The notes beneath the pieces were generated by a model that did not search any database, was not told the origin of the DNA, and saw only the letters and a list, made by a program, of their open reading frames with translations. Of a stretch of 64,000 nucleotides of DNA, positions 52,731 to 54,143 are shown piece after piece (the stretch's first letter is position 1; every line of letters starts with the position of its first letter). The stretch comes from an uncultured Candidatus Planktophila sp. (GTDB lineage: Bacteria > Actinomycetota > Actinomycetes > Nanopelagicales > Nanopelagicaceae), in the NCBI GenBank assembly GCA_964576975.1, contig CAZNWM010000002.1:3811-67810 (forward strand), read 5' to 3'. The position numbers and the translations under genes were made by a program.

Positions 52731-52856
52731 GTGCTTCAGTTCTCACTTTAGAAGCAATACCAGTAACCTAATCTCCTAGCCGCCTAACACTGTAGAGCCC
52801 TACCCCTTAGGTCACGTCTAAAAAACATTTGTACTTAACCTAAAAGGAGAACGTTC

Positions 52857-54143
52857 GTGAATTCACCAGTGACAGCAACAATTCCAAAGCACGATATTGC
52901 AGATGCATCACTAGCGGCAGAAGGTCGCAAGCGCATTGAATGGGCAGAACGCAACATGCCAGTGCTTGCACAAATTCGTGCACGCTTTGAAAAATCACAA
53001 CCATTTACCGGCGTACGCATTGCAGCGTGCATGCACGTCACAACAGAGACAGCAAACTTAATGCGCGTTCTCAAAGCTGGAGGCGCAGAAATCGCGCTCT
53101 GTGCTTCAAACCCACTGTCAACACAAGATGACACTGCAGCAGCTCTTGTACACGAATTTGGTATCAGCGTTTTTGCTCGCAATGCAGTTGATCGCGATGG
53201 ATATTACTCACACATCAACGCTGCTTTAGATATCGAACCACACCAAGTATTCGATGATGGTTGCGATCTCGTAAACACATTGCACACAACTCGCAAAGAA
53301 CTCATTGGAAACATTGCCGGCGGTTGCGAAGAGACAACTACCGGAGTCATTCGTCTTACACAGATGGCAAAAGATGGCGCACTTCAATTCCCAATGATTG
53401 CCGTCAATGACACAGACACAAAGCACATGTTTGATAATCGTTACGGTACAGGTCAATCAACACTGGATGCAGTTTTCCGTGCAACAAACTTCCTACTTGC
53501 TGGTCGTATCGTTGTTGTTGCAGGTTTTGGATATTGCGGCAAAGGTGTTGCAGAACGCGCAAAGGGTATGGGCGCTGATGTAATCGTCACCGAAATTGAT
53601 CCAACTAAGGCACTCGATGCAATGATGCAGGGATTCCGCGTTATGCCTATGGCAGACGCTGCAAAAATCGGAGATGTCTTTATCACCGTTACAGGTAATC
53701 GCGATGTTTTGCGAGATGAGCACTTTGCTGTCATGAAAGATGGCGCAATCATGGCTAACTCCGGTCACTTCGACATTGAAATTGACGTTGCATGGCTAGA
53801 GCAAAATGCAAAGAAGAAGAATGCAAAGATGCGTCACCAAACAGATGAATACGTATTGGCAGATGGTCGTCGACTTCTTCTCATTGCAGAAGGACGTCTC
53901 GTAAACCTCGGTGCAGCAGAAGGTCACCCAGCATCAGTAATGGATATGTCATTTTCTGATCAGGCACTAACAGCTGAGTACTTAGTTAAGGAAGCTAAGA
54001 ATCTCAAGCCAGGTGTTCACACTGTGCCTACATATATTGATAAGGAAGTTGCAAGTCTTAAGCTACAAAGCATGGGTGGAAAGATTGATGTTCTTACACC
54101 TGCACAAGATATGTACTTGAACTCTTGGGAGCACGGTAGCTAA
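52857..54143 (+). CDS. ahcY: S-adenosylhomocysteine hydrolase
   Basis: [53 protein letters not shown] and GHPASVMD. Confidence 0.96.

Follow-up and report, generated by a model that had tools for sequence, protein, structure and literature searches.

A conserved 38-nucleotide leader element, a candidate cis-regulatory RNA, upstream of ahcY in a Candidatus Planktophila genome

The 64,000-nucleotide (nt) stretch of DNA analysed here (the window) comes from an uncultured Candidatus Planktophila sp. It carries ahcY, the gene for S-adenosyl-L-homocysteine (SAH) hydrolase, behind a gap of 126 nt that runs from the stop of an upstream gene (pmm, of the phosphoglucomutase/phosphomannomutase, or PGM/PMM, family) at 52730 to the ahcY start. 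In this gap we found a 38-nt block (52776..52813, + strand) that is conserved, present in a single copy, strictly associated with ahcY and positioned after a -10 box. Its pairing is consistent across variants, and the stems of its inner hairpin (P1, enclosed by an outer helix, P0) are compensated across the family around a conserved loop. With moderate confidence, we read the block as a new leader RNA that regulates the ahcY-mtrAB operon in cis and is recognised by a putative partner. We infer that the mRNA would start at or next to the block, that the block would act at the RNA level, and that stabilisation of its helices would, in the window and part of its clade, favour an open ribosome-binding site (RBS).

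Conservation and structure of the leader core

Leaders were compared first at 30 loci of the window's own genus (g1) and then in 20 more of the genus and in 99 genomes of 14 other genera of the same family. Seven genomes flagged as unpublished (G042, G050, G059, G533, G632, G658 and G721) enter the AhcY tallies and match tables only; none of their sequence was used, and our conclusions do not depend on them. AhcY was present in 61 of the 61 relatives searched, and the order pmm to ahcY was kept at all 30 same-genus loci. At 19 of these loci the block of about 38 nt is almost invariant; it is lacking at ten loci with gaps of 67-79 nt and at one other. Mean pairwise identity is 0.87 for the core; for ahcY in the same genomes, it is 0.56 at third codon positions and 0.95 at the first two. 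Judged by the difference from third codon positions, the core is under purifying selection.

Of 150 genomes of the genus, 100 gave exactly one match each to a covariance model (CM), R1, which was built from 22 distinct copies of the genus and is dominated by sequence conservation; in a second draw, 11 of 12 genomes did so. The 12-nt centre of the core likewise occurs once in the genome of the window. The model detected nothing in leaders without the core and nothing at E<=0.1 in 17 other genera, where we regarded three matches of about 16 bits (E 0.7-0.9) as noise. When 401 genomes of the order were searched for the exact pattern, matches with 2 mismatches outside the genus proved to be noise as well, and none lay beside ahcY or a PGM/PMM gene.

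An exact-pattern scan of metagenome contigs returned at least 120 stretches, mostly from freshwater or lakes by record name, so the host organisms appear to be common in lake water. Among the matches listed, 99 of the 102 with enough downstream DNA precede ahcY on the same strand. The flanking core is missing from the remaining three, which match by chance. None of the matches listed added an informative variant of P0.

In the window, the core can be drawn as two helices separated by an internal loop, all on the + strand. P0 joins GCCUAA (52782..52787) to UUAGGU (TTAGGT in the DNA, 52807..52812), an assignment based on a tally of pairs and on folding. According to the genus alignments, the internal loop consists of CACU on the 5' side (52788..52791; CACA, CAAA or CAA in relatives) and of CCC on the 3' side (52804..52806; GCC in most relatives), the latter including the CC at 52805-06. 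The same alignments define the P1 hairpin (52792..52803), with GUAG at 52792-95, the loop AGCC at 52796-99 and CUAC at 52800-03. Within the genus the P1 stems are invariant, the loop deviates only in genome L002 (AGUC), and the unpaired bases of the core are nearly invariant.

Two clades could be told apart by their P0 helices. Clade A, to which the window belongs (...GCCUUAGGU...), pairs GCCUAA or GCCUAG with UUAGGU. Across its 19 distinct variants, 98% of the pair cells hold standard pairs versus 12-42% with slid partners, and the share of paired cells in P0 is 97%; variation is limited to the replacement of G.U by A-U at both ends of P0 and to a U-U mismatch in three variants. In clade B (...GCCGAAGGUC...), the P0 register is shifted by one base, 100% of the cells are paired, and two outer pairs are also kept. 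All four P0 pairs are retained, with different bases, in each of three variants of this clade (G-C/A-U/C-G/U.G, G-C/A-U/U.G/C-G and A-U/G.U/U.G/C-G). A G.U pair on the sense strand is a mismatch in DNA; therefore, the G.U pairs of P0 favour an RNA helix over a DNA palindrome.

Downstream of the core, an A-rich linker (52814..52835, + strand) is unconserved and could not be aligned between the clades. Clade-B linkers (L030/L140, L125/L126, L139 and L209) hold unrelated extra hairpins, such as AGAGCU...AGCUCU and CCUCA...UGAGG, so the distance from the core to the Shine-Dalgarno (SD) sequence varies by about 40 nt. Genus leaders without the core (L006, L008, L011, L016 and others, with gaps of 67-79 nt) keep the -10 box, and several of them carry another small hairpin, UGAC-CGCA-GUCG.

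Two other origins of the core were rejected by inspection. GUAGAGC resembles the D-arm of a tRNA, but a complementary GCUC is missing. Neither does the core encode a leader peptide: of its three reading frames, two contain stops and the remaining one lacks a start codon.

An AGCC- or GGCC-capped hairpin in other genera

The loop hypothesis was drawn from g1 and tested only on other genera, whose leaders were scanned for 4-base-pair (bp) stems around each of the 256 possible 4-nt loops. Outside g1, AGCC was the only one of the 256 loops to occur in four genera, a number that 1 of 1000 dinucleotide-shuffled sets reached. AGCC caps the stems CUGG/CCAG in g41, GAGA/UCUC in g26 (10 of 14 leaders), AGUG/CACU in g28 (1 of 5) and CCGA/UCGG in g29. 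GGCC caps GUGA/UCAC and CCGA/UCGG in g29 as well as GCGA/UCGC in g36. Thus, five other genera carry, at the equivalent place in the leader, AGCC or GGCC hairpins with fully compensated stems of 4-5 bp. When 11 representatives were aligned, all four P1 pairs showed changes on both sides; the rows had been picked by this feature, and the alignment is descriptive only.

The mirror loop GGCU was found in 1 leader versus 52 for AGCC. This asymmetry argues for a strand-specific role at the RNA level, to which shared ancestry of the loop could contribute.

In other families of the phylum, 40 leaders of genes for the same short type of AhcY yielded no hairpin capped by AGCC or GGCC. Since it is also absent from many leaders within the family, the hairpin is, as far as the compared leaders tell, a family-specific and dispensable feature.

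One look-alike in g28 (L116), in which both helices are compensated, scored 9 bits with R1; this is not significant, and it was counted solely as an AGCC hairpin. In g26 (L104, L172-L177), the bases flanking GAGAAGCCUCUCAUUC covary perfectly, with U...A in four leaders and C...G in three. A second helix, XGA/UCY, may therefore compete with the AGCC hairpin or extend it.

Several observations weigh against a leader RNA with a partner. About a third of the genus does without the core, which speaks for a dispensable element, and the hairpin occurs in 0 of 21 leaders of g27 and in none from g30-g35. Clades A and B require P0 registers one base apart. Informative variation is nearly absent within the genus: the RNAalifold energy is just -2.7 kcal/mol, without any compensatory pair, and the measures of covariation fail to beat shuffles. 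In clade B there is one double compensatory change, which 59 of 500 shuffles reach. At the level of the family, the P1 pairs are all Watson-Crick with no G.U, and several of the hairpins are perfect 12-bp DNA palindromes (GTGAGGCCTCAC, GCGAGGCCTCGC) that a dimeric DNA-binding protein could also explain. Finally, the genus CM misses the hairpins of the other genera, so the case for their homology draws on where they lie, on the identity of the loop and on the enrichment test.

The promoter, the predicted mRNA start and the ribosome-binding site

The sequence GTAACCT at 52763..52769 (+ strand) is read as the -10 box of the ahcY-mtrA-mtrB promoter because of its conservation throughout the family. 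The pattern GTA[AG][ACT]CT occurs on the sense strand in 80 of 149 family leaders and on the antisense strand in 2 of 149, and close variants (ATAACCT, GTATCTT) account for many of the remaining ones. In the same-genus gaps the box reads (G)TAACCT, TAATCT, TACGCT or TAGGCT and is kept in nearly all 30. It lies a fixed 22 nt from P1 in the three g1 leaders checked (L001, L004 and L015); in other genera it precedes the equivalent hairpin by 10-24 nt in most leaders and by 33 nt in the g26 leader L178. The -10 consensus of actinobacterial promoters is TANNNT, and both the conservation of the box and its distance from the core agree with a promoter of the sigma-70/SigA type. No -35 hexamer was found 16-18 nt upstream, nor did a simple scan for the sigma-70 consensus detect any -35/-10 pair within the gap. 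A clear -35 is often lacking in actinobacterial promoters.

Since 52763-69 is read as the -10 box, transcription is predicted to start at 52776..52779 (+ strand), 7-10 nt downstream of it. The RNA data consisted of 23 runs in the form of assembled contigs, which are uninformative on start sites and strand. A contig from a metatranscriptome extends from 52790 to 52996; RNA libraries thus contain the core from about P1 onwards and the remaining leader. In four runs no contig covers 52219-52764, and the leftmost contig over the ahcY leader begins at 52790, which agrees with a start in the gap and is not evidence for it. In run X1, a contig that joins ahcY at window position 52876 continues upstream as a clade-B leader (TAGGGAGATATATCTAAATG...). 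Therefore, relatives with the other leader variant were present in the same RNA sample.

The published site of MtrA, a likely homologue of which is encoded downstream, consists of two direct repeats of 5-6 nt, GTRACC-N5-GTKAC (PMC5650626). By inspection, this direct repeat is absent from the core, and no second repeat stands at N5 beside the -10 box; an MtrA autoregulation site in the core was rejected on these grounds. GTAACC (52763-52768), overlapping the -10 box, is a lone match to the half-site GTRACC.

The original prediction described the gap as a switch-like leader in which TCTCCT acts as an anti-SD and TTAGGT toggles between two copies of TAACCTAA, and it looked to a sensor of S-adenosylmethionine (SAM) or SAH. 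Its strings all exist (TAACCTAA at 52764-71 and 52836-43, TCTCCT at 52772-77, CC at 52805-06, TTAGGT at 52807-12, AGGAGA at 52845-50 and GTG at 52857), and the length it gave for the gap is correct. TCTCCT reads GCCCCT or GCCACT in the two closest genomes, whose AhcY proteins are 97-98% identical, despite an identical SD and start, and it lies at or before the predicted mRNA start. The upstream copy of TAACCTAA coincides with the conserved -10 box and is predicted to be untranscribed. With a start at 52776-79, both strings would fall outside the mRNA. Taken as structural evidence, the complementarities do no better than chance: a 140-nt stretch over the gap has a minimum free energy (MFE) of -22.2 kcal/mol versus -20.5 +/- 3.2 for shuffles (z -0.52), and 58 of 200 shuffles fold as well.

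The proposed toggling of TTAGGT held up in part. The hexamer does lie inside the conserved core and pairs downstream in the MFE fold of the window leader, but the strand with which it forms conserved pairs, GCCTAA at 52782-87, was missing from the prediction. CC and TTAGGT together (52805-12) can pair either upstream with this strand, as P0, or downstream with AACCUAA..GG at the RBS. In that MFE fold, UUAGGU (52807-12) pairs with the second TAACCTAA copy (52836..52843, + strand), which makes it a possible downstream competitor of P0. Of the 30 same-genus loci, just L001-L003 possess this copy; some clade-A leaders have shorter equivalents of the competitor, UACC or ACCUA.

When the predicted transcripts of eight clade-A variants were folded, the MFE structure was P0 plus P1 in five, among them the two closest relatives of the window; the alternative to it was a pairing of positions 25-33 with the SD. 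For the window itself and L004, the MFE structure instead pairs CC/UUAGGU or the C-rich 3' side of P1 with the region just before and inside the SD AGGAGA (52845..52850, + strand; identified from the window sequence and the comparison of 30 gaps). The probability that both G's of the SD are unpaired in this closed fold is 0.01-0.02. Mutually exclusive open and closed folds of the RBS, as first claimed, are thus predicted in the window and L004, but the downstream competitor is not conserved in the genus. The competing folds are thermodynamically plausible for the window leader.

Compared with composition-matched shuffles, the duplex between core and SD is stronger in clade A (p 0.01-0.13; 0.024 for the window) but not in clade B (p 0.2-0.3). 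Clade B has lost CCUUA, and its SD has changed to AGGG, which pairs with CCCU; native duplexes amount to about -7.7 kcal/mol in both clades. On swapping the clades, core B with SD A gave -4.5 versus -7.8 kcal/mol with its own SD, and core A with SD B gave -9.5. The signal is asymmetric and reflects a single evolutionary event; therefore, co-variation of core and SD was rejected. Gating of the RBS is plausible in the window's clade on these folding predictions; it is neither demonstrated nor a general property.

Proposed mechanism, alternatives and the operon

In our preferred reading of the block as a cis-regulatory leader RNA, the gap would fall into three parts: the -10 box, the 38-nt RNA at or next to the 5' end of the mRNA, and an unconserved linker with the RBS. 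The RNA would fold into a two-helix stem-loop of P0, the asymmetric internal loop CACU/CCC and P1 capped by AGCC. A trans-acting partner, more probably a protein than a small ligand, may then recognise the invariant bases of both loops, and its binding would set the translation or the stability of the ahcY-mtrAB message. In the window and part of its clade, the 3' strand of P0 and the preceding CC could alternatively pair with AACCUAA..GG before and inside the SD, and stabilisation of P0/P1 would leave the RBS open.

Known protein-binding operator hairpins in bacterial mRNAs include the autoregulatory leaders of ribosomal proteins and aminoacyl-tRNA synthetases. They share with the present element a conserved loop and bulge on a covarying stem between promoter and RBS, but the stem here has just 4-5 bp and no leader family of Rfam matches it. 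ANTAR-target leader RNAs consist of two tandem hairpins with hexaloops, whereas only a single short hairpin with a 4-nt loop was found here. No terminator-like site (a GC-rich hairpin followed by a run of U) was detected in 52400-53100, which speaks against an intrinsic-terminator attenuator.

A first alternative, which we consider unlikely, is a very small new metabolite ON-riboswitch, in which P0, the internal loop and P1 bind SAH (or SAM, adenosine or homocysteine), free the RBS and raise AhcY when SAH builds up. The gene context is classic for SAH riboswitches and would fit an ON logic, the unpaired bases hardly vary, and the size is in the range of the smallest known aptamers (that of preQ1-I has about 34 nt). 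The competing P0 and RBS pairings of the window and L004, the clade-A duplex with the SD and the joint change of CCUUA and SD in clade B also fit such a switch. However, the linker and competitor are unconserved, the clade-B duplex does not exceed shuffles, the element is missing from a third of the genus, and other genera share only the bare 12-nt hairpin, too little for a ligand pocket.

Rfam was searched with cmscan under permissive filters at E<=10, using 52600-53000 and 10 variant leaders from six genera. The scans gave just about two chance matches each to unrelated families (microRNA, small nucleolar RNA, S15 leader; E 1.6-6) and no riboswitch model. In particular, SAH, SAM-II, SAM-V, SAM-SAH, SAM-I/IV and SAM-VI models found no match, and membership in these classes is not supported. 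The SAH riboswitch (RF01057) resembles the present leader in its position in the ahcY 5' region, but it is a larger pseudoknotted aptamer, while the leader here is a simple two-helix stem-loop of about 38 nt. The small, SD-sequestering classes SAM-II, SAM-V, SAM/SAH and SAM-VI are alike in size and in the C-rich 3' segment that pairs with the RBS in some variants; they differ in that no conserved SD pseudoknot was found here, the distance to the SD varies and the linker is unconserved.

The narrower proposal that the 38-nt element is the aptamer of a minimal ON-riboswitch for SAH or a related metabolite, which in one abundant, streamlined lineage of freshwater actinobacteria would couple SAH to AhcY and the co-transcribed MtrAB envelope and division system, seems quite improbable.

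A DNA operator is an alternative to which we also assign a low probability. Here, a dimeric factor would bind the near-palindrome around GAGCCC or GA(G/A)GCCUC in the initially transcribed region and block or modulate transcription of ahcY-mtrAB. Besides the exclusively Watson-Crick pairs of P1 across genera and the perfect 12-bp palindromes, the position of most hairpins 10-24 nt past the -10 box, a frequent location of repressors, is in its favour. In genus g32, ahcY has a palindrome and a divergent MerR-like gene, so control by a transcription factor probably exists in the family. On the other side, typical operators show the reverse of the pattern seen here, in which the arms vary freely among genera around a conserved asymmetric centre. 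The sense strand holds AGCC in 52 leaders and GGCT in 1, and P0 in the genus retains its pairing through sense-strand G.U. Additionally, the sole regulator among the six neighbouring genes checked with Pfam is mtrA, whose repeat the core lacks.

Rather doubtful, too, is a passive 5'-proximal stem-loop that responds to no signal through a partner and either shields the ahcY-mtrAB mRNA against decay dependent on its 5' end or determines its basal translation. In most of the lineages checked, about 3-17 nt separate the predicted 5' end from the hairpin, a placement shared with the 5'-terminal stem-loops that stabilise bacterial mRNAs. In addition, ahcY is well represented in four metatranscriptomes, and the stems covary like those of any structural hairpin. 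But passive stabilisers have no need of a loop conserved across genera. The invariant AGCC/GGCC loop in six genera and the near-invariant unpaired bases of the 38-nt core would remain unexplained, and stems of 4 bp are weak.

The switch as first drawn, with its anti-SD, its two TAACCTAA copies and a SAM/SAH expression platform, is very improbable: its strings and complementarities are present and its downstream half (UUAGGU with AACCUAA, CC with GG) is in the MFE fold of the window leader, but TCTCCT is unconserved, the upstream TAACCTAA is the -10 box, the second copy is found in 3 of 30 genomes only, the fold has a z-score of -0.52 and Rfam gives no match. The complementary hexamers and the duplicated octamer are a promoter box plus lineage-specific sequence, which contradicts that drawing. 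What stands of the original prediction is that a conserved and probably functional RNA is present; half of the drawn switch fails in comparison. This negative result matters in itself, as an apparent switch turned out to be a promoter box and lineage-specific sequence.

The genes behind the leader give the cis-regulatory reading its interest. ahcY (52857..54143, + strand) has a GTG start and encodes a protein of 428 amino acids with the Pfam domains AdoHcyase (2.5e-59) and AdoHcyase_NAD (5.7e-57). The enzyme removes SAH, an inhibitor that arises from every SAM-dependent methylation. An mtrA-like response regulator gene of the OmpR type (54143-54826, + strand) follows, its start overlapping the ahcY stop (54140-54146), and an mtrB-like histidine kinase gene with a HAMP domain (54829-56382, + strand) begins 3 nt after mtrA (54826-54829). 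Probably, the three genes form one operon and are thus under the control of the leader. The MtrAB system is described as essential in mycobacteria (PMC6265350).

An uncatalogued conserved leader RNA would be a candidate control element for both ahcY and MtrAB in very small genomes. With a metabolite as its partner, it would rank among the smallest classes of riboswitch; with a protein, it would indicate that this group, for which no post-transcriptional regulator is known to have been described, possesses one. Our literature search on riboswitches or leader RNAs in this group and on sahH-mtrA promoter studies returned nothing relevant.

Two further features of the locus were noted. No tmk gene separates ahcY from mtrA in the window. 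In g32 (L082, L083, L084 and L197), the upstream neighbour of ahcY is not pmm, and a perfect inverted repeat, TTATGACAA-N4-TTGTCATAA, lies about 90-110 nt before ahcY. The N-terminus of the divergent gene found there resembles a MerR-type helix-turn-helix; together with the repeat, this makes a candidate transcription-factor operator for ahcY.

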